This document shows, in pieces, positions 6,630 to 56,369 of a stretch of DNA of 64,000 nt (positions are counted from its first letter, which is position 1; each line of letters begins with the position of its first letter). Location of the stretch: contig CBDEUS010000002.1 in NCBI GenBank assembly GCA_965243395.1, positions 128,001-192,000 on the forward strand, written 5' to 3'. A program made the position numbers and the translations under genes. The notes under the pieces were generated by a model. That model was not told the DNA's origin. It made no database searches and saw only the letters and a program-made list of their open reading frames with translations. The DNA is from Gammaproteobacteria bacterium. GTDB taxonomy: Bacteria; Pseudomonadota; Gammaproteobacteria; UBA4575.

Positions 6630-7643
6630 TTAGTCAGATTCTAGGTTTTTTCTGTAGTTTCCTGGGGACATCCCAGTAATTTCACGAAATGCCGAGTAGA
6701 AGTTGGACTGGGACTTAAACCCGTTTGCTAAGCCTACAGAAAGTACTGATGCATTAGGCTCATTGGTTAGCATATTTTTAGCCTCAGTAACGCGTCTTTC
6801 TCTTATGAATCGAGGAAATCCACAGTCATATTGTGTATTGATTAATTCAGATAATTGATGACTATTAATATCGAGCATTTCTGCAAGCATGCTTAAACTT
6901 AGGTTCTCATTTTGATAAACCTTGTCATCATTCATAAGTTTTTCTAAAGAAGCACGCACAGATTCAACATTGATGCCTCCTAAAGTAGATTTTGCGTAGG
7001 CAGCTTCCGTAATTTCAACAATGTCACTTAGCAATTCAGGAAAGATAATTACCGATGCTGTAACTAATAACATTGCAATCCCTATTGAAGAGGCATATGC
7101 GCCAAAAAAGATTGTGTGGTTTATATAAGGCACAGATAAACCGAGTATCAAAGCTAACAAAGCCATCAACGCAAACAACAAACCAAAGAATATTTCAAAT
7201 TTGAAACGACTACTCTGAGGGCGTAATTGGAAAATAATTCTTGCAATCCAAAATGTATATCCTGTTCCAATTAAAAAAGCGATTACCGGAATTATTTTTA
7301 CAGGAAGAAATAAACCTATAGCGACTGGCACAAAGTGAAGAATATGATAGATGCTTAGCTTCGATTCCGGGAATAAAACTACTCGACTGAAAAAATAAAA
7401 CGTCATTGGAACAAAAAGCAATAAATATAAATATCCACGATTATTGAGTAAATCAGTATCGTTGGAAAAATATAGATAATGCCAAAATTGCAAACCAGAA
7501 AGAGAAATCAGCAATGCAACACAAGACAACTTGCTGATGAAGTTCTTCCTAATATTTGGGAGAAAAAATAAATATGAAAAAAGAAGAATAACTGCGCTGA
7601 ATATAGAAAACCCAGCTATCAATTGTACAAATGTAGATACCAT
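6630..7643 (-). CDS. membrane-anchored AraC-family regulator
   Basis: Several N-terminal TMs; C-terminal LSMLAEML...GFKSQSNFYSAFREITGMSP AraC HTH. Confidence 0.9.
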   Translation of the reverse strand: MVSTFVQLIAGFSIFSAVILLFSYLFFLPNIRKNFISKLSCVALLISLSGLQFWHYLYFSNDTDLLNNRGYLYLLLFVPMTFYFFSRVVLFPESKLSIYHILHFVPVAIGLFLPVKIIPVIAFLIGTGYTFWIARIIFQLRPQSSRFKFEIFFGLLFALMALLALILGLSVPYINHTIFFGAYASSIGIAMLLVTASVIIFPELLSDIVEITEAAYAKSTLGGINVESVRASLEKLMNDDKVYQNENLSLSMLAEMLDINSHQLSELINTQYDCGFPRFIRERRVTEAKNMLTNEPNASVLSVGLANGFKSQSNFYSAFREITGMSPGNYRKNLESD

Positions 7644-7776
7644 CTTATTGTTCTTGTGCCCCAGCTAAATATACATCTACATTCTATATGTGATTAGCCG
7701 ACATGTATTCATCGGATCAATAAATTTAAGCCAAATAAAAACAGTAGATTACGATTTATATGACTCTTGTTTGAAT

Positions 7777-7800
7777 AATATCCACCGTACTTCCACCAAA
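7777..7800 (+). repeat. putative integrase arm-type repeat, copy 2
   Basis: AATATCCACCGTACTTCCACCAAA. Confidence 0.6.
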
Positions 7801-7811
7801 GTATTGATTAT

Positions 7812-8594
7812 CTATACCCAAGTGCTATTCAAGGTATCCCTAAAATAGTTATTTAAACCCTCAGCTTCAGCCTCAGAGCTTTTTTGAGCAAATTTTGTGT
7901 CCTCTAATCGATTTAATTCAGATTCAATAAACTCATTTAGTACTGTAATCTTTTCTGAAGTATCTTTCTCAAATCCAGATTTTTTTCGCTCTAGCAAGTT
8001 ATTTATGGCACTAAGAAGCTTATTGTCATCAACTAACTTTTCTATTAGTTTGGAAAATTCAGTGGGCACCACGCCATAATCATTTTCTATCCATTGCACT
8101 GCTAATAATGGGCGAAGAACATAAAAATATTTTTTTAAACGAACTTGTTCTTTCTGCAAATGCTCTTTATATGTTCTTTTAGCCATACTTAAATAATGAT
8201 AGGCGCATGAAACTGGTGAAAAACTTTTTGGGAGTAAGTTTTGAAACCCATCAGAAAATTTTTCCTTATCTTTATAGACAATAGGAGACCCTATCCACTC
8301 AATCAAAGGTGGATTAGATTTTCGTAACAATCCGAGTGCCTTTCTCAGATCCCAACCATTTATATCAAGCAAATCATCTATAGGTAATTCGATCACATCT
8401 CTTTTGTGTTCAAGATCAATAGATAGATACCACTCAGGTGGATGTATATAAATAAAACGTACGTCAAAATCACTATCTTTAGATGCAAACCCCCACGCTC
8501 GACTACCCGATTCACAGGCATACAAAACTTGAACATTATATTCATCTTCAATTTCATCAAGCTTTTGAAGGATCTCTTCTTTTCTTTCTATCAT
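7812..8594 (-). CDS. RlaP/YcgL-type DNA polymerase beta superfamily nucleotidyltransferase (RNA-repair associated)
   Basis: YACESGSRAWGFASKDSDFDVRFIY, GWDLRKAL, KKYFYVLRP. Confidence 0.9.
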   Translation of the reverse strand: MIERKEEILQKLDEIEDEYNVQVLYACESGSRAWGFASKDSDFDVRFIYIHPPEWYLSIDLEHKRDVIELPIDDLLDINGWDLRKALGLLRKSNPPLIEWIGSPIVYKDKEKFSDGFQNLLPKSFSPVSCAYHYLSMAKRTYKEHLQKEQVRLKKYFYVLRPLLAVQWIENDYGVVPTEFSKLIEKLVDDNKLLSAINNLLERKKSGFEKDTSEKITVLNEFIESELNRLEDTKFAQKSSEAEAEGLNNYFRDTLNSTWV

Positions 8595-8602
8595 AGGTAT
8601 AT

Positions 8603-8902
8603 CTAGAAAAAAGTTTTAACAGTTAAAACTATTCCTAAGATTGGTAGCAATAAAAGCCAAATAATAAATATAGTGGCAATTAATATATTAGCTAAATACG
8701 AAGACTCCACTCCTTCGTCTTCCCAATCTTCATCTGCACAAATTACAGATACAAAATCTGAATTAAACTCAACATTAGAATGTTTATTATCAATTGCGAT
8801 ATCAATCGCATCTTTTAGTAACATTAAACCATCCTTATTGCCTGCAATATTATCTTCATATCTTTCACTGTAAATTTTTACCCAAGCTGTTTCATTATAC
8901 AT
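8603..8902 (-). CDS. small hypothetical protein with C-terminal TM helix
   Basis: 99-aa ORF tightly packed between rtcB and the nucleotidyltransferase. Confidence 0.6.
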   Translation of the reverse strand: MYNETAWVKIYSERYEDNIAGNKDGLMLLKDAIDIAIDNKHSNVEFNSDFVSVICADEDWEDEGVESSYLANILIATIFIIWLLLLPILGIVLTVKTFF

Positions 8903-8916
8903 TCAACTACTCCTAA

Positions 8917-10113
8917 CTATCCTTTTACACATACAACTTGACGCAAAGTGTGTTCAACGCTTACTAAATCATTTTGGTTTTCCATCACCACATCAATATC
9001 TTTATATGCGCCAGGAATTTCATCTAACACACCTTTGTCTTTACGACATTCAACACCAGCCGTTTGCGCTTCAATATCTTCTTCATTGAAATGGCGTTTT
9101 GCTTTACCACGACTCATACGTCGACCTGCACCATGCGAACATGAACTAAATGATTCAGGGTTACCTTTGCCACGAACAATGTAAGATTTAGCGCCCATAC
9201 TACCCGGAATAATTCCAAGCTCATCCACACCAGCACGAATCGCACCTTTGCGTGTAATGTAAACATTTTCACCAAAATGGTTTTCCATAGACACATAATT
9301 ATGATGACAATTGATGGCTTCTTTAGTGATACCAAATTTCGGTAACACTTTTTTTAATGCATCAATTATCAAGCGCATCATTTCTTTGCGATTTTCCATT
9401 GCGTAATCTTGAGCCCAGTTCACTGCATTTACATAGTCATCAAAGTGCTCTGCCCCTTCAGTAAAATATGCTAAATCTTTATCTGGCAAATTATGAATAT
9501 GCTTTTGCATATCTTTTTGTGCTAATCGAATAAAGAATTGGCCAATAATATTCCCTACTCCACGGCTACCCGAATGAAGCATAATCCATACATCATTATT
9601 TTCATCTAAACAGATTTCAATAAAATGATTCCCACCACCAAGTGTGCCTAGTTGACGCACCCAAGTTTGATAAGGCTTTTTCTGCATCTTTAAAAGTTTG
9701 GGGTGTTTTTCTAGTAAGCGATCTAAACCGTCAGATAAAGGTCGTATAGTTGAATTGCGAGCTTTATCTGACTTATGCATATCAAAACCAACAGGTATTG
9801 CAACTTCAATAGCAGTACGCACTTTGCGTAAGTTATCTGGAAGATCATTAGCATTCATTGAAAGACGCAAAGCATTCATTCCACAACCAATGTCTACACC
9901 AACCGCAGCAGGAATAATTGCACCTTTACATGGAATTACCGAACCCACAGTCGCACCTTTACCAAAGTGCACATCCGGCATCGCCGCAATATGACTATGG
10001 ATAAAAGGCAACTGTGATAGGTTGCATAGTTGCTGGTAGGCTTCGTGCTCTATGTCATCAGTATAGATTTTTACTCGCACATTACCTTTGGTAATGACTT
10101 TTTTAATTGGCAT
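8917..10113 (-). CDS. rtcB: RtcB RNA ligase
   Basis: MPDVHFGKGATVG, VGVDIGCG, GTLGGGNHFIE, HSGSRG, PGSMG, SHGAGR. Confidence 0.97.
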   Translation of the reverse strand: MPIKKVITKGNVRVKIYTDDIEHEAYQQLCNLSQLPFIHSHIAAMPDVHFGKGATVGSVIPCKGAIIPAAVGVDIGCGMNALRLSMNANDLPDNLRKVRTAIEVAIPVGFDMHKSDKARNSTIRPLSDGLDRLLEKHPKLLKMQKKPYQTWVRQLGTLGGGNHFIEICLDENNDVWIMLHSGSRGVGNIIGQFFIRLAQKDMQKHIHNLPDKDLAYFTEGAEHFDDYVNAVNWAQDYAMENRKEMMRLIIDALKKVLPKFGITKEAINCHHNYVSMENHFGENVYITRKGAIRAGVDELGIIPGSMGAKSYIVRGKGNPESFSSCSHGAGRRMSRGKAKRHFNEEDIEAQTAGVECRKDKGVLDEIPGAYKDIDVVMENQNDLVSVEHTLRQVVCVKG

Positions 10114-10125
10114 ATGTCACCCTAA

Positions 10126-10367
10126 TTAATCTCTAAAATATTCATTTCTATTAGAACCATCATGTCGCTTTTTCTTCAAGCAACAATTCTTGAAATCTAC
10201 GCCCTGATCCACATACACATGGATCATTCCGGCCGAACTTCTCGCTAAGTTCTTTATTGCCATGAACGATTCTATTTCCTCGTTTAACGTTTGTTTCTGA
10301 TGGGAATCCTTTACGACGTTTACTCATACGCTCAAAAGGATTGATCCTTATTTTTAAATTTACACAT
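10126..10367 (-). CDS. small SEC-C (Zn-knuckle) protein split over three frames by two apparent +1 frameshifts
   Basis: Not in the ORF track. SD GAGGTG precedes ATG 10367. [11 protein letters not shown] ends at TTT-TGA; the +1 frame reads [14 protein letters not shown]...[14 protein letters not shown]; a second +1 at TTT-C gives [21 protein letters not shown]. Confidence 0.75.
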
Positions 10368-10393
10368 GTTGCACCTCACATTACTAAACTAAA

Positions 10394-10780
10394 TCAGTTG
10401 TATTTTTTGCGATAGTTACTGGTAAAAGGTTGCGCAACAATTTGATAATCATCTTGATAGCGTATCCTTCCAATTTCCTCACATTTAATCATATCTACAG
10501 CAATACCTTTATTTTGTATTACAGAAAAGAGCTTCCACATAACGCGTATATGCTCTTGTGCACTAGGTTTAAACCAACACAGGCAGCGATAGTTACCGGG
10601 TATCTTCAAAATAGGAGGCACAATTAAATTTCTATCAATCCATCTAAACACATATTGAACTTCTTCATATTCATAATCAGTGAATGAATTGTTGTATTTT
10701 AGCTTGTACGCAAGATGTATTAGGCCTTGTTCATAACGTGACCTCCTGTCTTGGCACAGCCCAATAAATCGTAAGTACAT
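10394..10780 (-). CDS. hypothetical protein
   Basis: 128-aa ORF co-oriented within the RNA-repair module. Confidence 0.65.
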   Translation of the reverse strand: MYLRFIGLCQDRRSRYEQGLIHLAYKLKYNNSFTDYEYEEVQYVFRWIDRNLIVPPILKIPGNYRCLCWFKPSAQEHIRVMWKLFSVIQNKGIAVDMIKCEEIGRIRYQDDYQIVAQPFTSNYRKKYN

Positions 10781-10826
10781 TTTTAATATCCATTTATATT
10801 ATTTCTCAAATTTAATTAAATGACGC

Positions 10827-10850
10827 AGGCCCTCAAATAATAGAGGGCCT
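10827..10850. terminator. GC-rich hairpin downstream of the SPFH gene
   Basis: AGGCCCTC-N8-GAGGGCCT. No clear U tract on the minus strand, so it may be a stabilising stem. Confidence 0.45.
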
Positions 10851-10869
10851 TTGTCAGTTTATACTCACG

Positions 10870-12018
10870 CTACCCATCAACTTTGATTTGTACCGTGTCT
10901 TTTAGGATGCCATCCAAACCTCCGAAGACAGTTAGTTTGTCTACTTTGTCAGTGACTTTTTCCAACGTCTCCAACTCTTTCAAGCGCATCAAGGTTGGGT
11001 TGTCATCCATCAATTTCGCAGTGTTCAACAATGAACGTGTAGCTGCAGTTTCTTCACGTCTTTTAATGACATTTGCTTGCGCCACTTTTTCTGCTTGAAC
11101 TACTTGGTTCAAGATATCTTTCATGTCGCCTGGCAAAATGACATCTTTCACGCCAACGCTGCGAATTTCGATACCGTATTCAGATACGTTTGCTTTAACA
11201 GATTCGTAGACGTATTTGTCTAGTTCATCTTTAGTTACAAGCAATGCATCCAAAGTGCGTGTACCAATTACCTGACGAAGTGCAAATTGCATTTCGCGGT
11301 AAATGTATCCAGCAAGGTCTACCAATTCATGACGCGCTTTAATTGGGTCACGAATTTGATATTGAGCTGACAAGTTTGCACGTAGGCTAACTTTGTCTTT
11401 TGTCAAAACCTCTTGACCTTGCACTTCCATGCTTTGCATTCGCAAATCAACTTGTTCAACTATTACGTTGCGGTTGTATTTCCAGTATGCGTACAAGCCT
11501 GGTTGCAATGATTCTTTTAATTCACCATCCACAACCAATAGGCCAACATAGTTGTCTGCAACTTCTGCGATGTAAATTGAATTAATCAATTCACTTGGTA
11601 CTTGTTTCGCACGTGTGTGCACAAACTGACCCACTTTATTTGCAGGCAATGCAAAATCTTCTGCAATATTTTGCACTTCAACTGTCATTTCAACTGGACC
11701 TTTCCAAAATAATTGGCGTGTACCAGGTGCTACAACAGTGCTCAATTGGCCACGTTGATAAACCAATCCAACTTCATATGCGTCGGTTTCAACAACTTGG
11801 AAGTATTTTGTTACTATCTCAGGTTGTTCTTTTACCAAGACATCCACATATTTGTGGTTGAATTGCGCTTCCGTTACATCATAAATCTCGACTTGAATTC
11901 GGCCGAAAATATCGAAATATCGATATACGCCTGGTTCAAGCACTTTTACAATGCTTCGGTTTTTCAAGTAAATTCCTCGCTCATGCTGCGCAATAACAAT
12001 TCTTTTAAATCCGAACAT
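10870..12018 (-). CDS. SPFH/band-7 (slipin) family protein
   Basis: VDLRMQSMEVQGQEVLTKDKVSLRAN, GVKDVILPG, RREETAATRSLLNTAKLM; SD AAGGAG. Confidence 0.9.
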   Translation of the reverse strand: MFGFKRIVIAQHERGIYLKNRSIVKVLEPGVYRYFDIFGRIQVEIYDVTEAQFNHKYVDVLVKEQPEIVTKYFQVVETDAYEVGLVYQRGQLSTVVAPGTRQLFWKGPVEMTVEVQNIAEDFALPANKVGQFVHTRAKQVPSELINSIYIAEVADNYVGLLVVDGELKESLQPGLYAYWKYNRNVIVEQVDLRMQSMEVQGQEVLTKDKVSLRANLSAQYQIRDPIKARHELVDLAGYIYREMQFALRQVIGTRTLDALLVTKDELDKYVYESVKANVSEYGIEIRSVGVKDVILPGDMKDILNQVVQAEKVAQANVIKRREETAATRSLLNTAKLMDDNPTLMRLKELETLEKVTDKVDKLTVFGGLDGILKDTVQIKVDG

Positions 12019-12044
12019 AATTACTCCTTATTAAATAAAGTTTC

Positions 12045-12610
12045 GGGAAATGCTCCACATATAAATTGCGGGTAAACTCCTGTTGTAGTAACGGGTCTAA
12101 AATCTTTCGCATGTCATTGCGATACCCCAACTATCGCTTTGAACATGTTTCAGTCTCTAGACTGGTTATCACAAGCTTGTGATCACGCAGGCAATCTACA
12201 TGTTGCGACATAAAAAACTCTCAACCGTAGTTGAGCTATTTGAAATGTCGCGGGAACATTTCCCTGGTTAGTGTTTTCACACAAAATGCGGATTCGAACC
12301 GCAGGCTTTCGCCATTACCAATGAACAACGTTTAAAGTTGTCGAAAGAACAGGAATCGAACCTGCAACATTTCCGTTATCAGCGGAATGCTCTCCCTTTG
12401 AGCTATCTTTCACTGGTGTATCGGACCACTTACAACTTTGTATACACATTGCAATCACCTTTCGGCTTAGCTTTTGTGCACAGGTCTGAATTCAAGAATC
12501 AGATCCGCTAAGTAAATAAATGTCTCTCAATACTCATGAACTCAATGTTTATAAAACATCGAATTACAATTCTTTAAATACAGGTGACCTGCCCCATTGC
12601 AGGCCACCAT
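12045..12610 (-). ncRNA. unassigned large structured RNA (~570 nt) with tRNA-like domains
   Basis: ORF-free on the sense strand. 12-bp long-range helix 12253-12264/12045-12056, GNRA hairpins, two TTCGA T-arms. Ends approximate. Confidence 0.7.
12338..12412 (-). tRNA. tRNA-Ile(GAU)-like domain embedded in the structured RNA; ends in ACAA, not NCCA
   Basis: TGAAAGA TA GCTC AAAGGGA GAGC A TTCCG CTGATAA CGGAA ATGTT GCAGG TTCGATT CCTGT TCTTTCG A CAA. Confidence 0.7.
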
Positions 12611-12636
12611 TTTTCACGCCCCCTTTCTCCTAAAAT

Positions 12637-13203
12637 TTAACGTCGCTCTTTAGGACATTGTGTTTTCAAGAACGCCATTTGGTCTGCCAAAATTTTGCGG
12701 TTAGATAAAATCAATCCTTCTGCATAATTTGGCTCATATGGAATTCCTAATAATGAAATTCCTATTCTTTCTGCCTCACTAGGCATTAAGCTATCTTTAC
12801 GTGCATTACATGCACGGCATGCTGTAACCACATTCATCCATGTGTTTTTCCCACCACGTGATAGTGGAATCACATGATCGCGCGTTAAGCGATTTCGAGA
12901 ATATTGATCACCGCAATACATGCACATGTAATCATCACGTCGAAACAATCTTGCATTTGTCAGTGCAGGCACTTCACGAATGTGGTCGTCTGATCGCATC
13001 ACACCATGTGTTGCAACAATACTGTTCACATCAATAAATGAACGAGTTCTTGTTCTGCGATTTACACCACCATGAATACGAAAAGAATTTGAACCCATTT
13101 CGTAAACAACTTGTTCTCGTGCATACACTAATGCTGCATATTCCCAGTTCATCCATTCAACTGGACGCCCAGCTACGTCTAAACGCAAAATTAAATTTTC
13201 CAT
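12637..13203 (-). CDS. HNH endonuclease (McrA/HNH_5-like)
   Basis: LFRRDDYMCMYCG...TRDHVIPLSRGG...NVVTACRACNARK. Confidence 0.92.
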   Translation of the reverse strand: MENLILRLDVAGRPVEWMNWEYAALVYAREQVVYEMGSNSFRIHGGVNRRTRTRSFIDVNSIVATHGVMRSDDHIREVPALTNARLFRRDDYMCMYCGDQYSRNRLTRDHVIPLSRGGKNTWMNVVTACRACNARKDSLMPSEAERIGISLLGIPYEPNYAEGLILSNRKILADQMAFLKTQCPKERR

Positions 13204-13231
13204 TTAACTTTTCTCTTTTATAAAGTTACTG

Positions 13232-13254
13232 TTTAACAATTTGGATGATTGAAG
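13232..13254. repeat. trailer arm of a 23-bp perfect inverted repeat bracketing the tRNA array
   Basis: TTTAACAATTTGGATGATTGAAG is the exact reverse complement of 16565-16587. Confidence 0.92.
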
Positions 13255-13263
13255 AGTTTAATT

Positions 13264-13340
13264 TGGTACGCAGCCCCAGATTTGAACTGGGAATCAAGTA
13301 GGTTTGAGCTACTCAGGTCTTCCAATTGCCTCAGCTGCGC
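13264..13340 (-). tRNA. tRNA-Leu(CAA), short variable loop
   Basis: Hand-folded cloverleaf, loop CT CAA AC, 5-nt V loop, A73, encoded CCA. Confidence 0.88.
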
Positions 13341-13352
13341 AAAAATTTAATT

Positions 13353-13429
13353 TGGTATCCCTGGCAAGATTCGAACTTGCAACATTCTGGTTTTAAGTCA
13401 GATGCGTCTTCCGGTTGCGCCACAGGGAC
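13353..13429 (-). tRNA. tRNA-Leu(UAA), short variable loop
   Basis: Loop CT TAA AA, V loop ATGTT, CCA. Confidence 0.88.
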
Positions 13430-13440
13430 GTAATGTAATT

Positions 13441-13518
13441 TGGTAGCCACCCTCGGATTTGAACCGAGATGCACCATGTTCTAAGCATGGTAGGTATGCC
13501 AATTCCCGTCAGATGGCC
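13441..13518 (-). tRNA. tRNA-Leu(UAG), short variable loop
   Basis: Loop CT TAG AA, V loop TGCAT, CCA. Confidence 0.88.
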
Positions 13519-13561
13519 AAAATTTTTATTTTTATAATTTAGTTATACATAAATTATGATT

Positions 13562-13637
13562 TGGTACCCCTAGTAAGATTCGAACTCACATCAACTGATT
13601 TAGAAGATCAGTGCTTTTCCAATTAAGCTATAGAGGT
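13562..13637 (-). tRNA. tRNA-Arg(UCU)
   Basis: Loop CT TCT AA, CCA. Confidence 0.92.
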
Positions 13638-13659
13638 AAAAAACTAATTGAATTATTTT

Positions 13660-13756
13660 TGGTACCCCAACCAAGATTCGAACTTGGATCTACCACTAAT
13701 CTGGTGCGTGAATCACGGGATATAAATCCGCTGCTTTACCGTTAAGCTATTGGGGC
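13660..13756 (-). tRNA. tRNA-Ile(UAU) with a 27-nt variable region
   Basis: Loop TT TAT AT; V region GATTCACGCACCAGATTAGTGGTAGAT; CCA. Confidence 0.85.
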
Positions 13757-13765
13757 AAAATTTTT

Positions 13766-13839
13766 TGGACACTCCGCTCAGAATTGAACTGAGTCCTCAA
13801 GGGTTGCAACCTTGCGTCTTGCCGATCGACCACGGAGTG
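13766..13839 (-). tRNA. tRNA-Cys(GCA)
   Basis: Loop TT GCA AC, U73, CCA. Confidence 0.9.
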
Positions 13840-13840
13840 T

Positions 13841-13915
13841 TGGCACATCCGGAAAGATTTGAACTTTCATCTTTGGGTTTGGAGGCCAATGTTCTGCCAA
13901 TTGAACTACAGATGC
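13841..13915 (-). tRNA. tRNA-Trp(CCA)
   Basis: Loop CT CCA AA, G73, CCA. Confidence 0.9.
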
Positions 13916-13917
13916 TC

Positions 13918-13993
13918 TGGCTGGGAGTCCTGGACTCGAACCAAGATCTCAAGAGTCAAAGTCTTGCGTCTTAACCAGTTAGACGAATTCCCA
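13918..13993 (-). tRNA. tRNA-Gln(UUG)
   Basis: Loop CT TTG AC, U1-A72, G73, CCA. Confidence 0.92.
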
Positions 13994-14002
13994 TTTTTGT
14001 TT

Positions 14003-14079
14003 TGGCGCGGTTGGAAAGACTCAAACTTTCATCTTCGACTTTCGTAGAGTCGTGCTTTATCCGATTAAGCTACAACCGC
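14003..14079 (-). tRNA. tRNA-Arg(ACG)
   Basis: Loop CT ACG AA; T loop TTTGAGT; CCA. Confidence 0.9.
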
Positions 14080-14087
14080 AAAAACTT

Positions 14088-14163
14088 TGGTAGCCCGAAT
14101 CCGATTCGAACGGATAACTTTCGCTTTGTAAGAACGACACTCTGCCAATTGAGTTATCGGGCT
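14088..14163 (-). tRNA. tRNA-Val(UAC)
   Basis: Loop CT TAC AA, CCA. Confidence 0.92.
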
Positions 14164-14171
14164 AAAATTTT

Positions 14172-14243
14172 TGGTAGTTACGGTTAGAATCGAACTAACA
14201 AGTCCAGGGTTATGAGCCCTAGCCGAAGACCACTTCCGTAACT
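14172..14243 (-). tRNA. tRNA-Met(CAU), initiator-like, with a minimal D arm
   Basis: AGTTACG GAAG TGGT CTTC GG CTAGGG CTCATAA CCCTGG ACTT GTTAG TTCGATT CTAAC CGTAACT A CCA. Confidence 0.8.
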
Positions 14244-14251
14244 AAAGTATT

Positions 14252-14325
14252 TGGTGGATCCAGTAGGAGTCGAACCTACCTCTGCGGGTTAAAAGCCCGC
14301 TGCACAACCGCTATGCCATAGATCC
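14252..14325 (-). tRNA. tRNA-Lys(UUU)
   Basis: Loop CT TTT AA, CCA. Confidence 0.9.
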
Positions 14326-14326
14326 T

Positions 14327-14402
14327 TGGCACGCCTGAAAGGAGTTGAACCTTTATCTCACTGGTTCGAAGCCAGTGGCTCTTCCAATTAAGCTACAGAC
14401 GT
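14327..14402 (-). tRNA. tRNA-Arg(UCG)
   Basis: Loop CT TCG AA, CCA. Confidence 0.9.
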
Positions 14403-14404
14403 AT

Positions 14405-14495
14405 TGGCGGAGAAGAACAGATTCGAACTGTTGAATGAAAAATTTCCATCCCTCCTTTAGCAAAGGAGTGCTTTAAACCACTCAGCCACTTCTCC
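14405..14495 (-). tRNA. tRNA-Ser(GCU)
   Basis: Loop TT GCT AA, long V arm, G73, CCA. Confidence 0.92.
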
Positions 14496-14555
14496 AATTT
14501 ATAATTTGCAGCGCTTCGCGATATTTAATTTGCGAGTAATACCCACTCGCAAGCG

Positions 14556-14631
14556 TGGGGTGAACTACCGGACTCGAACCGGTATCTACCAGATTCACGT
14601 TCTGGGGCTTTGCCATTAAGCTAAGCTCACC
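14556..14631 (-). tRNA. tRNA-His(GUG), with A32/C33
   Basis: G-1:C73 pair; loop AC GTG AA; CCA. Confidence 0.9.
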
Positions 14632-14642
14632 ATAATTATTTT

Positions 14643-14734
14643 TGGCGGAAGGCGGAGGGCACGATCCCCACCAACTAAAAAGCCAGCCACCAGTTTTCAA
14701 GACTGGGACACCCCCACTGGGTGAATCACCTTCC
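14643..14734 (-). tRNA. tRNA-Ser(UGA) with a non-canonical 8/4 fold
   Basis: Acceptor GGAAGGTG/CGCCTTCC (8 bp), T stem GGGG/CCTC (4 bp), D stem CACCC/GGGTG, loop CT TGA AA, long V arm, G73. Confidence 0.8.
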
Positions 14735-14749
14735 TTATATATGTAAATT

Positions 14750-14824
14750 TGGAGCGGATAATCGGATTCGAACCGATATTTATGGTTTGGAAGACCATCA
14801 CTCTGCCAATTGAGTTATACCCGC
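14750..14824 (-). tRNA. tRNA-Gly(UCC)
   Basis: Loop CT TCC AA, U73, CCA. Confidence 0.92.
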
Positions 14825-14829
14825 AGATT

Positions 14830-14907
14830 TGGTCTGAGTGGCTGGATTCGAACCAACGACCTCTCGCTTCCAAGGCGAGTACTCTGCCCAGGCTGAGCTA
14901 CACTCAG
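14830..14907 (-). tRNA. tRNA-Pro(UGG)
   Basis: Loop CT TGG AA, C1-G72, CCA. Confidence 0.92.
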
Positions 14908-14934
14908 AGAATTAATTAAATATAAAAAATTATT

Positions 14935-15010
14935 TGGTGCATCGAGTTGGACTTGAACCAACGACCACACGATTATCGGTCGTGCGCTCTACCAACTGAG
15001 CTATCGATGC
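14935..15010 (-). tRNA. tRNA-Ile(GAU), with C33
   Basis: Loop CC GAT AA, CCA. Confidence 0.9.
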
Positions 15011-15011
15011 T

Positions 15012-15086
15012 TGGTGTTCCTGACCAGAATTGAACTGGCATCTCGAGTTTGAAAGACTCGTGACCTCACCATTAGTCGACAGGAAC
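15012..15086 (-). tRNA. tRNA-Glu(UUC)
   Basis: Loop CT TTC AA, CCA. Confidence 0.9.
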
Positions 15087-15100
15087 TAATAAAATATTTT

Positions 15101-15176
15101 TGGCGGACCCGATCGGACTCAAACCGACATCCCCTTTATCGACAGTAAAGTGCTTTATCAATTAAGCTACGAATCC
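15101..15176 (-). tRNA. tRNA-Asp(GUC)
   Basis: Loop CT GTC GA, G73; D-loop GA with T-loop TTTGA (A19-U56 compensation). Confidence 0.88.
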
Positions 15177-15185
15177 AACTTTTGT

Positions 15186-16047
15186 TTAAAGGTTGAGACT
15201 ATGCCTTTAAAAATCACTCTTTTGTTGAAGTACCTAACGCATTGCTGTGCGATAGTTGCCAACGTGTCCACATTACCCTGGTTGCTCCAGCGATTATGTT
15301 AGTGATCATGACTGCTTTTTTTAAAGTGTAGCGATTCACTTGTCGCGTTAATCTATTCAGCTATTCACTTACCGAGAACCTTGCCAGGCTCTAAACGGAG
15401 GCTATCCGAACGTGCAATGAAGTAACTAAAGTTCTTTGGCTTGCGACCGCAGAATCTTCCATGTTCCCAAGTGGGCATGGACTTAAGTCATTTTCAATTA
15501 ACACCGAGACGCGTCTTTGCGTTTCACCGTATGGTGATCTATGTGGGAGTCGAACCCACGACCTATTGATTCTAAGTCAATCGCTCTACCAATCTGAGCT
15601 AAAAGATCAGGTACTACTAAGACGTGCACGTCTCAGTTGCTTCATTATTTTTTGAATAACGAAATACAACACGCCTTTTGTCTTTCCTCTGCCGAGTACT
15701 TAACCGAATATTCGGATCATGGCTTCCACCCATTTCCCTAATAATCTGCACAACCGCACTTGTCTGCAAAACTCGTACTATGTTGTACTACCTGTTATCT
15801 CTCGTAGTACGCAATCTAGTATCACGGGTTACAGCACTACCTGTATCTTTCTCACGACCCGTATTCCCAAGTAAACCTGGTACGTCAATCGTGGTACTTC
15901 CGCGTATTGCTTGGCTACTATTGCCGATTGAATTACGACAACATGGAGACCAGGCTTGCTTGGTTTGACCTACTTTGAAAAGTGGGCGAAATACCGTAGT
16001 CGTATTCCTTTCCTATCGTTGCCGATAGTTATCGTGCCAAGCCACAT
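15186..16047 (-). ncRNA. large structured RNA, probably GOLLD
   Basis: About 860 nt inside a tRNA array with no sense ORF and many hairpins (CTATCG GCAA CGATAG; CCGAATATTCGG; GTACTAC...GTAGTAC). Size and context match GOLLD. Family call from memory; ends approximate. Confidence 0.65.
15532..15608 (-). tRNA. tRNA with Leu(UAG) anticodon on a class-I body, nested in the GOLLD-like RNA
   Basis: GATCTTT TA GCTC AGATTGGTA GAGC G ATTGA CTTAGAA TCAAT AGGTC GTGGG TTCGACT CCCAC ATAGATC A CCA. Confidence 0.85.
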
Positions 16048-16050
16048 ATT

Positions 16051-16126
16051 TGGTGGAGGATCACGGATTTGAACCGTGCGCCTTCTGTTTGCAATACAGA
16101 CGCTCTGCCAACTGAGCTAATCCCCC
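16051..16126 (-). tRNA. tRNA-Ala(UGC)
   Basis: G3:U70, loop AT TGC AA, CCA. Confidence 0.93.
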
Positions 16127-16135
16127 AAACTTATT

Positions 16136-16210
16136 TGGCTGCGACGGTTGGACTCGAACCAACATTGCTTCGCTTAACAGACGAATGTTCTACCATTGAA
16201 CTACATCGCA
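16136..16210 (-). tRNA. tRNA-Asn(GUU)
   Basis: Loop CT GTT AA, G73, CCA. Confidence 0.92.
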
Positions 16211-16218
16211 ATTATATT

Positions 16219-16295
16219 TGGTGCATCAGGATGGATTCGAACCACCATCGCGTCGGGCTTCAACCGACCGCTCTACCCATTGGAGCTACCGATGC
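16219..16295 (-). tRNA. tRNA-Phe(GAA)
   Basis: Loop TT GAA GC, CCA. Confidence 0.92.
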
Positions 16296-16304
16296 AAAAA
16301 TAAT

Positions 16305-16389
16305 TGGTGGAGAGAGATGGATTCGAACCACCACGCTAATAATTAGCACTGGGTTACAGCCAGCGTGTCTCACCAATGACTGTCTCTCC
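16305..16389 (-). tRNA. tRNA-Tyr(GUA)
   Basis: Loop CT GTA AC, V arm GCTAATTATTAGC, CCA. Confidence 0.88.
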
Positions 16390-16401
16390 TAAAGTTAAAA
16401 C

Positions 16402-16477
16402 TGGAGCTGGTGATAGGCGTCGAACCTACAACCTACTGCTTACAAAGCAGTTGCTCTGCCATTTGAGCTACACCAGC
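16402..16477 (-). tRNA. tRNA-Thr(UGU), first tRNA of the array
   Basis: Loop TT TGT AA, CCA. Confidence 0.93.
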
Positions 16478-32035: not shown

Positions 32036-32110
32036 TGGAGGCCAGGGTCGGAGTTGAACCGACGTATTACACCTTGCTGGGGGTATGCATCACCACTCTG
32101 CCACCTGGCC
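32036..32110 (-). pseudogene. tRNA-Cys-like element with an aberrant anticodon arm
   Basis: GGCCAGG TG GCA GAGTGGTGA TGC ATACC CCCAGCAA GGTGT AATAC GTCGG TTCAACT CCGAC CCTGGCC T CCA. Confidence 0.75.
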
Positions 32111-56293: not shown

Positions 56294-56369
56294 TGGTGGC
56301 CAGGGGCAGAATCGAACTGCCGACACGAGGATTTTCAGTCCACTGCTCTACCAACTGAGCTACCTGGCC
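56294..56369 (-). tRNA. tRNA-Phe(GAA), chromosomal; island integration target
   Basis: Canonical cloverleaf, loop CT GAA AA, CCA. Confidence 0.97.

Follow-up and report, generated by a model that had tools for sequence, protein, structure and literature searches.

The stretch of DNA analysed here (the window) comprises 64,000 nucleotides from a Gammaproteobacteria bacterium of the GTDB lineage UBA4575 (GenBank assembly GCA_965243395.1, contig CBDEUS010000002.1, positions 128,001 to 192,000 of the forward strand). On its minus strand, between positions 10126 and 10367, the window is predicted to encode one small basic SEC-C zinc-knuckle protein of 79 residues, and the sequence comparisons described below make it very probable that this protein is produced by programmed +1 frameshifting at several UUU_Y sites, i.e., UUU codons followed by a pyrimidine. 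The window gene would be the local form of a family-wide design, in which two to five forward steps are taken at up to four fixed Phe positions, nearly all of these sites being UUU plus a pyrimidine and a minority CUU_Y. The parts of the gene are as follows.

10372..10377, minus strand: Shine-Dalgarno-like GAGGTG, 4 nt before the leader ATG
10335..10367, minus strand: leader open reading frame of 11 codons, beginning with ATG 10367-10365 and ending with the slippery TTT
10331..10340, minus strand: shift site 1, TCC TTT T GAG (TCC 10340-10338, TTT 10337-10335, skipped base T 10334); zero-frame TGA at 10334-10332
10193..10333, minus strand: middle frame of 47 residues, with a possible internal start ATG at 10327-10325
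10189..10198, minus strand: shift site 2, AGA TTT C AAG (AGA 10198-10196, TTT 10195-10193, skipped base C 10192, AAG 10191-10189); unshifted stop TGA at 10162-10160
10126..10191, minus strand: third frame of 21 residues, which would be reached by the second +1 step, followed by TAA 10128-10126
10164-10159, minus strand: homologue of family site 3 (CAT GAT), in frame in the window gene
10137-10126, minus strand: homologue of family site 4 (TTT AGA GAT TAA), in frame in the window gene

An earlier note on this DNA, made from the sequence alone, had described a Shine-Dalgarno (SD) sequence, an ATG, 11 codons and then TCC TTT TGA G, and all of these elements were found at their places on the minus strand. 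The middle (+1) frame begins with ERMSKRRKG and ends with GSGRRF, and the zero frame at site 2 continues for 10 further residues up to its stop. When TTT followed by a pyrimidine is read as a four-base step, the window gene gives a single 79-residue product (P0122). In the proposed mechanism, ribosomes would start at the ATG preceded by the SD-like sequence and read the 11 codons; once peptidyl-tRNA-Phe occupies UUU and the A site presents UGA, they would move one base forward, re-pair on UUU and go on with GAG, and at UUU_C AAG a second forward move would take place with re-pairing on UUC. With a pyrimidine as the skipped base, the +1 codon is UUU or UUC, and tRNA-Phe (anticodon GAA) is able to pair with either. 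The second shift would complete the zinc knuckle (C-x-C...C-C) and add the conserved tail DG..R..YFRD.

The product P0122 was assigned to Pfam SEC-C (PF02810) with 35 bits against a cutoff of 20.4, covering profile positions 1-18 of 19; the unshifted 55-residue open reading frame (ORF), which is without the last two zinc ligands, obtained 26.1 bits and covered positions 1-14. Residues 43-62 of P0122 align with zinc knuckles of the SecA/YecA/YchJ type (E 3e-6 to 2e-4; PDB 9l6b_C, 1sx0, and 1ozb), and the alignment to the zinc domains of YchJ and SecA is gap-free across the site-2 junction. Because the profile match is extended from 14/19 to 18/19 and no gap is needed at the junction, the second +1 step at AGA TTT C AAG can be said to restore the SEC-C motif with its ending FKNCC, as the earlier note had claimed. 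The part common to this protein and SecA, YecA, and YchJ is the knuckle of about 20 residues only. Neither the basic N-terminal part (21 residues) nor the tail was matched by a Pfam or NCBIfam model, and in NCBIfam only sub-threshold SEC-C tails of YchJ- and YecA-type models were found. An AlphaFold2 model of P0001 built with 110 sequences had a mean pLDDT of 63.6 and was not used further. The SEC-C domains of SecA, YecA, and YchJ bind zinc or iron, and SecB or the ribosome; we know of none of these proteins that needs recoding.

A protein search with the site-2-joined product yielded 449 relatives, whose database entries are a mixture of fragments and longer forms. The fragments include 55-residue entries that begin with MSKRRKG and end with GRF, and others that end with GSGRRF or continue as RRFQE. 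For comparison at the DNA level, the best 80 of 588 confirmed tblastn matches in species-representative genomes were taken as the genome set and the best 80 of 567 tblastn matches in metagenome contigs as the replication set, neither being a random sample, and the comparative set overall comprised 152 related loci from genomes and metagenomes. The genome set covers Planctomycetota, Verrucomicrobiota, Acidobacteriota, Cyanobacteria, Chloroflexota, Desulfobacterota, Deinococcota, and Bdellovibrionota, as well as Eremiobacterota-like lineages and Alpha-, Beta-, and Gammaproteobacteria, and includes isolates or complete chromosomes of Lysobacter (L020), Acidobacteriaceae KBS 96 (L045), Stieleria (L052), Pelomonas (L053), and Massilia (L072). 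Some genomes have two or three copies of the gene (G046, with L034, L061, and a third on C75; G042), and Tyr replaces the second zinc-binding Cys in the L061 copy. A mainly phage-borne gene was also considered and was ruled out, only three relatives being present among IMG/VR viral contigs.

In frameshift-aware alignments and three-frame prints, junctions recurred at four places, always following a Phe codon: leader|E, F|K.CC (within the knuckle), F|DG, and, at the C-terminal end, YF|R(D/E)-stop. The UUU_Y rule was examined by a decoding test, in which a start codon located at most 200 nt upstream had to yield the core through C.C, K.CC, and DG..R. Twelve loci with contig ends or a variant core motif, and too little flank, were omitted from this test. 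The numbers of loci decoded under each rule, in the genome and metagenome sets, are listed below.

Standard code: 4/80 genome loci, 0/70 metagenome loci
In-frame TTT plus C or T as a four-base step: 69/80 genome loci, 58/70 metagenome loci
TTT_Y without the exception for the G-F-P codon: 60/80 genome loci, 52/70 metagenome loci
Control TTT_R: 4/80 genome loci, 0/70 metagenome loci
Control TTC_Y: 6/80 genome loci, 2/70 metagenome loci
Control AAA_R: 11/80 genome loci, 2/70 metagenome loci
Control GGG_N: 6/80 genome loci, 3/70 metagenome loci
Control CCC_N: 2/80 genome loci, 0/70 metagenome loci

Under the UUU_Y rule, an upstream start reaches the core in 147 of the 152 loci, and among these 147 an SD-like motif was found in 144, an ATG start in 133, and a leader of 10-12 residues in 105; ATG plus SD reaches the core under standard decoding at 11 loci only. 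Full decoding from the leader was obtained for 124/152 loci, with two steps in 37 genes, three in 65, four in 21, and five in one, and never fewer than two. The C-termini of the decoded genes converge on HYF followed by RE or RD and the stop. All of the 358 shift events in the 124 genes are UUU_Y, which follows from the rule's own definition and is no test of the motif. TTT_Y GAR is the commonest leader-core junction among the relatives, and TTT_C AAG/AAA or TTT_T AAG is present at site 2 in 51 of the 124 decoded relatives; the window gene has a junction of each of these kinds. When CUU_Y was added to the rule, about 14 more loci were decoded, including TGT CTT_C GGC forms in Acidobacteriota and CTT_T GAT or GAA, i.e., the prfB tetranucleotide, in L018, L043, and L052. 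The comparative data give strong support to the proposal, made in the earlier note, of programmed +1 recoding at two UUU codons with re-pairing of tRNA-Phe.

Two frame breaks in about 240 nt are normally a hint of a decaying pseudogene or an assembly error, and databases annotate only the 55-residue middle ORF. Contigs rebuilt with Logan from two sequencing runs of one sample were identical to the window over 10050-10450, and the indels that had been sought there were not found; this sample is probably the source of the assembly, so the independence of the agreement is weak, and Logan contigs are blind to rare variants and RNA ends. One marine-metagenome contig matches 10332-10450, and no RNA run was among the sequencing runs listed for the locus. 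The two rebuilt contigs and the close relative L013 agree with the window sequence: in L013, which comes from a separate assembly and has an RtcB 97% identical to that of the window, both shift sites are kept and the protein differs at eight residues. A DNA search found the window locus in G000 alone among 41 related genomes, with short matches in G040 and G025, and in none of 24 same-family and none of 14 same-genus genomes. G040 belongs to another family of the same class and has 72% DNA identity to the locus. Its start is AGGAGG-ATG followed by 11 codons for a different peptide (MKRHNHNPASF) and the same TCC TTT TGA G; its core frame has no start codon at all, its site 2 is TCG TTT C AAG CGG TGC TGC, and a third break, AGC TTT TGA T GGC, leads to DGINRHDYFR. 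The earlier note had asked whether homologues keep both frame breaks. The breaks recur in G040 and at about 150 other loci, far more often than chance would give. Isolate or complete genomes (L020, L045, L052, L053, and L072) also show them at these codons, and every segment is under protein-level constraint.

This constraint was measured by the entropy at the three codon positions, which was 0.74/0.61/1.32 bits after site 2 (51 shifted loci), 0.65/0.52/1.27 bits after site 3 (73 shifted loci), and 0.46/0.37/1.48 in the core. Since third positions vary about two times as much as first and second positions, as in the core, the out-of-frame segments are constrained at the protein level. The spacing of the anchors is the same in 124/124 loci, of which 123 have distinct DNA sequences. 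In-frame variants were found at each of the first three junctions. Site 1 is in frame, via TTC, TTT_G or CTC, in five metagenome loci with GGAGG-ATG leaders (L125, L139, L140, L145, and L151), and these leaders are homologous to those of the shifted loci L138 and L162; the five belong to the 11 loci in which ATG plus SD reaches the core under standard decoding. Site 2 is in frame in 73/124 (TTC_A in 57 and TTT_A in 13), and site 3 in 50/124 (Tyr in 35, Phe in 8, and His in 7). Because the breaks are conserved, the segments are constrained and in-frame variants exist, a pseudogene, a sequencing error or unrelated small ORFs can be ruled out, and we consider a decaying or misassembled gene extremely improbable. 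Three sequence features expected of programmed +1 frameshifting were found in this family: the breaks lie at homologous codons in distant relatives with both frames under protein-level constraint, fused (in-frame) relatives exist, and re-pairing of the P-site tRNA is possible, the window sites being UUU_U and UUU_C.

Another explanation is that only separate products are made, i.e., that the leader is an upstream ORF ending at UGA, that translation is reinitiated at ATG 10327, five bases on, and that the 55-residue ORF is the final product. The spacing UGA-GCGU-AUG suits termination-reinitiation, and Met is present at this position in many relatives. However, many other relatives have ACN, AGC or TCG there, and their core frame is without a start codon. 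In the TTT_C GAG types, no stop codon closes the leader frame at the site. The conserved segments K.CC, DG..R..YF, and R(D/E)-stop in the later frames would be left unexplained, and the 55-residue product is without the last two zinc ligands. We therefore regard this explanation as very unlikely. The suggestion in the earlier note that the in-frame ATG at 10327 could bypass the first shift holds in part: it is a possible start in the window, but Thr or Ser occupies the position in many relatives and that frame offers them no start codon.

It was also considered that transcriptional slippage or editing might eliminate the extra bases from the RNA or bypass them, so that the ribosomes would meet a contiguous message. 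In some relatives site 1 contains 6-8 T in a row, which makes polymerase slippage conceivable, but at most sites only TTTC or TTTT stands before a purine, and such runs are too short for known transcriptional slippage. Moreover, the UUU_Y rule accounts for every codon of the T6, T7, and T8 variants by one step or two steps in succession, in agreement with the frame of the SD-ATG leader. The skipped base is limited to the pyrimidines that allow re-pairing of tRNA-Phe, and the control rules fail, which is a ribosomal signature. We infer from this that the event is ribosomal, and we give the RNA-level explanation very little credence.

Several observations weigh against programmed frameshifting at UUU_Y or limit its reach. 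No conserved stimulator was found; anti-SD pairing is only slightly stronger upstream of shifted sites than of in-frame ones, with p=0.02-0.04, uncorrected for relatedness. The zero-frame A-site codons are mixed (UGA, UAG, UAA, CGA, CAA, CAG, even UUU, and others), and because they vary across the family, no single hungry codon explains the shifts. These features do not by themselves account for a useful efficiency at 2-5 serial sites. An in-frame TTT_C at the G-F-P codon, which must stay unshifted, is present in 15/124 decoded genes, and 28/152 loci are undecoded by UUU_Y alone. Among these 28, about 14 are solved by CUU_Y, three decode but miss the search pattern, and two are cut by contig ends; the rest, which include L105, L107, L123, L131, and L146, are true exceptions or stay undecoded. 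Re-pairing is poor or impossible at CTG_C GAT, found at site 3 of L060 and L080 and arisen twice independently, at AAG_G AAT at site 2 of L020 (the Lysobacter isolate), and at TTT_A in L009, and L014 has a pair of +1 and −1 shifts eight codons apart; these loci without re-pairing (L060, L080, L020, L014, and L009) either are decaying copies or use a second mechanism. In addition, the internal ATG 10327 could yield a shorter product without shift 1, and the sampled loci are the best matches of each search rather than random ones.

To our knowledge, bacterial programmed +1 frameshifting is a textbook matter for essentially one cellular gene, prfB. The SEC-C genes resemble prfB in their short first ORF and in the in-frame UGA right after a codon whose tRNA is able to re-pair in the +1 frame, and L018, L043, and L052 use a CUU_UGA-type site. 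They differ in that the product is not homologous to RF2, in that no SD-like element is conserved about 3 nt upstream, in that about one third of the family sites have a sense codon (CGA, CAA or CAG) instead of a stop in the A site, and in that 2-5 sites are used where prfB uses one; an autoregulatory logic like that of RF2 is not evident. The likeness to prfB had been drawn in the earlier note from CTT TGA and from an AAGGA upstream. An AAGGA is indeed present upstream of site 1 in the window, its end 7 nt before TTT, but as a stimulator it is missing at site 1 of G040, and the family-wide difference in anti-SD pairing is weak.

The review of Atkins et al. (2016; PMC5009743), in the passages concerned with such sites, describes UUU_Ynn as especially prone to +1 frameshifting in bacteria and as apparently used for YopN-TyeA in Yersinia, gives UCC_UUU_CGU as the influenza PA-X cassette, notes UUU_U in place of CUU_U in a minority of prfB genes, and mentions several obligatory frameshifts per gene in Euplotes nuclear genes and some mitochondrial genes. 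The same tetranucleotide is used in the SEC-C family: site 1 is UCC_UUU_U in the window and UCC_UUU_CGA in many relatives, and no adjacent stop is needed. In the window, the shift-prone codon is joined to a stop at site 1 (UCC_UUU_UGA) and to a sense codon at site 2 (UUU_CAA). UUU_Ynn in bacteria is described in those passages mainly as error-prone, whereas in this family it is fixed at homologous codons across phyla and appears obligatory for the product. Several obligatory +1 events within one coding sequence are shared with Euplotes and mitochondria, where decoding or termination is altered globally; here a single small gene of ordinary bacteria is concerned. Antizyme works in a similar manner, with a +1 shift at a UUU-type or stop-adjacent site that serves as a sensor gating the main product, but it is eukaryotic and has a single site and a known ligand (polyamines), and sensing by the SEC-C gene is only a proposal. 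In the GeneTack survey, the cluster "Preprotein translocase subunit SecA" is placed only among the translational-coupling clusters, and neither SEC-C nor RtcB is mentioned. The passages of the Atkins review contain no mention of SEC-C or RtcB. In the literature searched for SEC-C, RtcB, frameshift, and tRNA arrays, no description of the family was found, a passing mention, e.g., in supplements, being possible, and no case of multiple obligatory frameshifts in a bacterial gene was found.

The surroundings of the gene in the window are listed below.

7812..8594, minus strand: gene for RlaP nucleotidyltransferase, downstream member of the RNA-repair cassette (PF10127, 2.9e-96)
8603-8902, minus strand: ORF of 99 residues with a hydrophobic tail, between rtcB and the RlaP gene; no Pfam or NCBIfam match
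8917..10113, minus strand: rtcB, 398 aa, ATG 10113-10111 (Pfam RtcB, 6.2e-131)
10394-10780, minus strand: ORF of 128 residues between the Band 7 gene and the leader; no Pfam or NCBIfam match
10870..12018, minus strand: gene for an SPFH/Band 7 protein, upstream
12340..16477, minus strand: tRNA array (25 genes), immediately upstream of the cassette
16219..16295, minus strand: array tRNA-Phe(GAA), anticodon loop UU GAA GC, i.e., G37
56294-56369: second tRNA-Phe of the genome, anticodon loop CU GAA AA, i.e., A37

The Band 7 gene, the 128-residue ORF, the SEC-C gene, rtcB, the 99-residue membrane ORF, and the RlaP gene form a same-strand cassette. The coordinates confirm the final stop at 10126 and the rtcB start at 10113 given in the earlier note, and the stop of the SEC-C gene and the ATG of rtcB are 12 nt apart. 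In the close relative L013, a 480-residue PcfJ-like protein is encoded at the place upstream of its SEC-C gene. A terminator-like hairpin with a T run is located at 12220-12235 on the minus strand, between the last array tRNA gene and the Band 7 gene, and because it separates the array from this gene the repair cassette may be its own transcript. In the promoter and terminator scan, promoter-like sites were no commoner than in shuffled sequence, and an Rfam scan of 7000-12400 at E up to 1 gave a tRNA edge as its sole match.

The 25 array tRNA genes lie within 4.1 kb, at 2 kb from the SEC-C gene, and 61 tRNA genes are present in the genome. This corresponds to a long tRNA array (at least 20 tRNA genes, at least two per kb, supernumerary): for 24 of the 25, a tRNA gene with the same anticodon is present outside the array, and the one exception, Leu(UAG), has two copies inside the array as well as one outside. 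Passages of Santamaria-Gomez et al. (2021; PMC8421152) report that long tRNA arrays are spread horizontally and that those of Anabaena stay silent until translation is impaired, whereupon their induction accompanies that of rtcB and an HNH gene. The window likewise has a supernumerary array beside rtcB, and its locus was not found in the 14 same-genus genomes, which would be expected if arrays move horizontally. The main text of that study refers to embedded hypothetical genes but not to this one, and the terms "frameshift" and "SEC-C" do not occur in it. At loop positions 37/38, many tRNAs of the window array are unlike their housekeeping counterparts: Pro(UGG) and Leu(UAG) have A37 instead of G37, and Tyr, Cys, and Leu(CAA) have C38. 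Elsewhere in the window, a tRNA predicted by ARAGORN (32036-32110, minus strand) has eight bases in its anticodon loop and a four-base anticodon, CAGC. The acceptor stem of this tRNA is identical to that of tRNA-Phe 56294-56369; the tRNA may read quadruplets, or it may be a decayed copy or the remnant of an integration.

Among the 80 genome loci, RtcB is adjacent in eight in addition to the window, and Hen1 of the Pnkp/Hen1 repair system is immediately downstream in three. At least one tRNA gene is present within 2.5 kb in 18/80 and at least four in 9/80. In L052, L070, and L082 the gene is inside an array, between tRNA-Arg(GCG) and tRNA-Cys, and the locus of L047 has an array, HNH, and RtcB together. 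On an IMG/VR contig (L196, 6001-6162) the gene stands within 21 tRNA genes in 12 kb; three of these are tRNA-Phe genes, of which two carry G37 and the third A37. The family is therefore tied to tRNA biology through tRNA arrays and RtcB or Hen1 neighbours. The remaining neighbours are variable, and clustering of the neighbours gave no universal partner gene. Translational coupling to rtcB, which the earlier note had considered as a purpose of the recoding, fails as a general one, RtcB being adjacent at so few loci and many loci standing alone without a co-directional downstream gene.

The tRNA-Phe of the array offers a further explanation, in which a dedicated shifty tRNA-Phe(G37) would decode UUU_Y and CUU_Y as quadruplets or keep the +1 position stable, and synthesis of the protein would require expression of the array tRNAs. 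G37 was found in 15 array tRNA-Phe genes, which come from 12 Pseudomonadota and Planctomycetota genomes or contigs (window 16219-16295, L213, L191, L047, L187, L188, L210, L211, L196 with two, L244, L245, L248, L249, and L255), and A37 is present in only 2/17 array tRNA-Phe genes (L212/L233 and one in L196). G37 thus looks like a hallmark of array tRNA-Phe in two phyla. The top-scoring tRNA-Phe has A37 in 27 of 30 gene-holding genomes (26 solitary and one, G298, in an array), and the second tRNA-Phe of the window genome also has A37. The bases 34-37, 5'-GAAG-3', can pair with 5'-YUUY-3', which covers both UUU_Y and CUU_Y. TrmD needs G36-G37, so G37 of the array tRNA-Phe would stay unmethylated. 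Modification of base 37 guards the reading frame according to passages of the Atkins review (PMC5009743), and, as noted in parts of PMC8421152, arrays are silent in Anabaena before translational stress.

Against a dedicated tRNA stands its distribution. Searches with a covariance model, used because BLAST queries with tRNA-Phe were too insensitive, found a G37 tRNA-Phe in only three of the 30 gene-holding genomes (G311, G312, and G313) and no G37 copy in 26 others, including the isolates G304, G305, G301, and G044 and the complete chromosome G297; these numbers refer to the matches of at least 73 bits, which were inspected, 688 weaker ones being outside the count and three of the 30 genomes showing no tRNA-Phe. 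A pattern search for G37 tRNA-Phe in 251 Planctomycetota genomes was discarded, the reversed control having matched about as often. Furthermore, G37 may serve another purpose, e.g., nuclease evasion, since many array tRNAs differ at 37/38. Because a G37 copy is present in only 3/30 gene-holding genomes, a dedicated tRNA is not the general mechanism, and as an explanation of the family it is doubtful. In array-bearing genomes such as that of the window, array tRNA-Phe(G37) might still boost the shifts, which we put forward tentatively.

Programmed +1 frameshifting by the ribosome at UUU_Y would have the following consequences. With a modest efficiency per site and 2-5 sites in series, the full-length protein would be very rare unless +1 slippage at UUU_Y rises, and possible triggers would be empty A sites, slow termination, damaged or hypomodified tRNA, and take-over by the array G37 tRNA-Phe. 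The gene would then probably be a steep translational-stress gate for a ribosome- or RNA-binding zinc-knuckle protein, operating with tRNA arrays and RNA repair (RtcB in the window). The idea in the earlier note that the shifts report slow decoding or tRNA damage is plausible and is strengthened by the links to tRNA arrays and RNA repair. A more specific version, which we regard as speculative and rather unlikely, is that the gene is a built-in read-out of a mobile module of tRNA array and RNA repair, completed only when decoding of UUU passes from the heavily modified A37 tRNA-Phe to the array G37 tRNA-Phe, the serial steps making a steep switch for a ribosome-binding protein. If this were true, a natural frameshift-suppressor tRNA would be paired with its target gene, which would be turned on when host tRNAs are damaged or the array is induced.

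The SEC-C genes would constitute, after prfB, a second widespread family with +1 frameshifting, here 2-5 times in about 80 codons and at bare UUU_Y. The regularity of G37 in array tRNA-Phe provides natural parts for a direct test of the long-standing question of how base 37 helps to maintain the reading frame. Provided that the shifts are ribosomal, the database entries that consist of the 55-residue fragment without two zinc ligands should be corrected, and the family would provide a natural system for studying how the reading frame is held at UUU and probably a sensor, within the cell, of how faithful translation is or of the state of the tRNAs, linked to tRNA arrays and to RNA repair by RtcB and Hen1.

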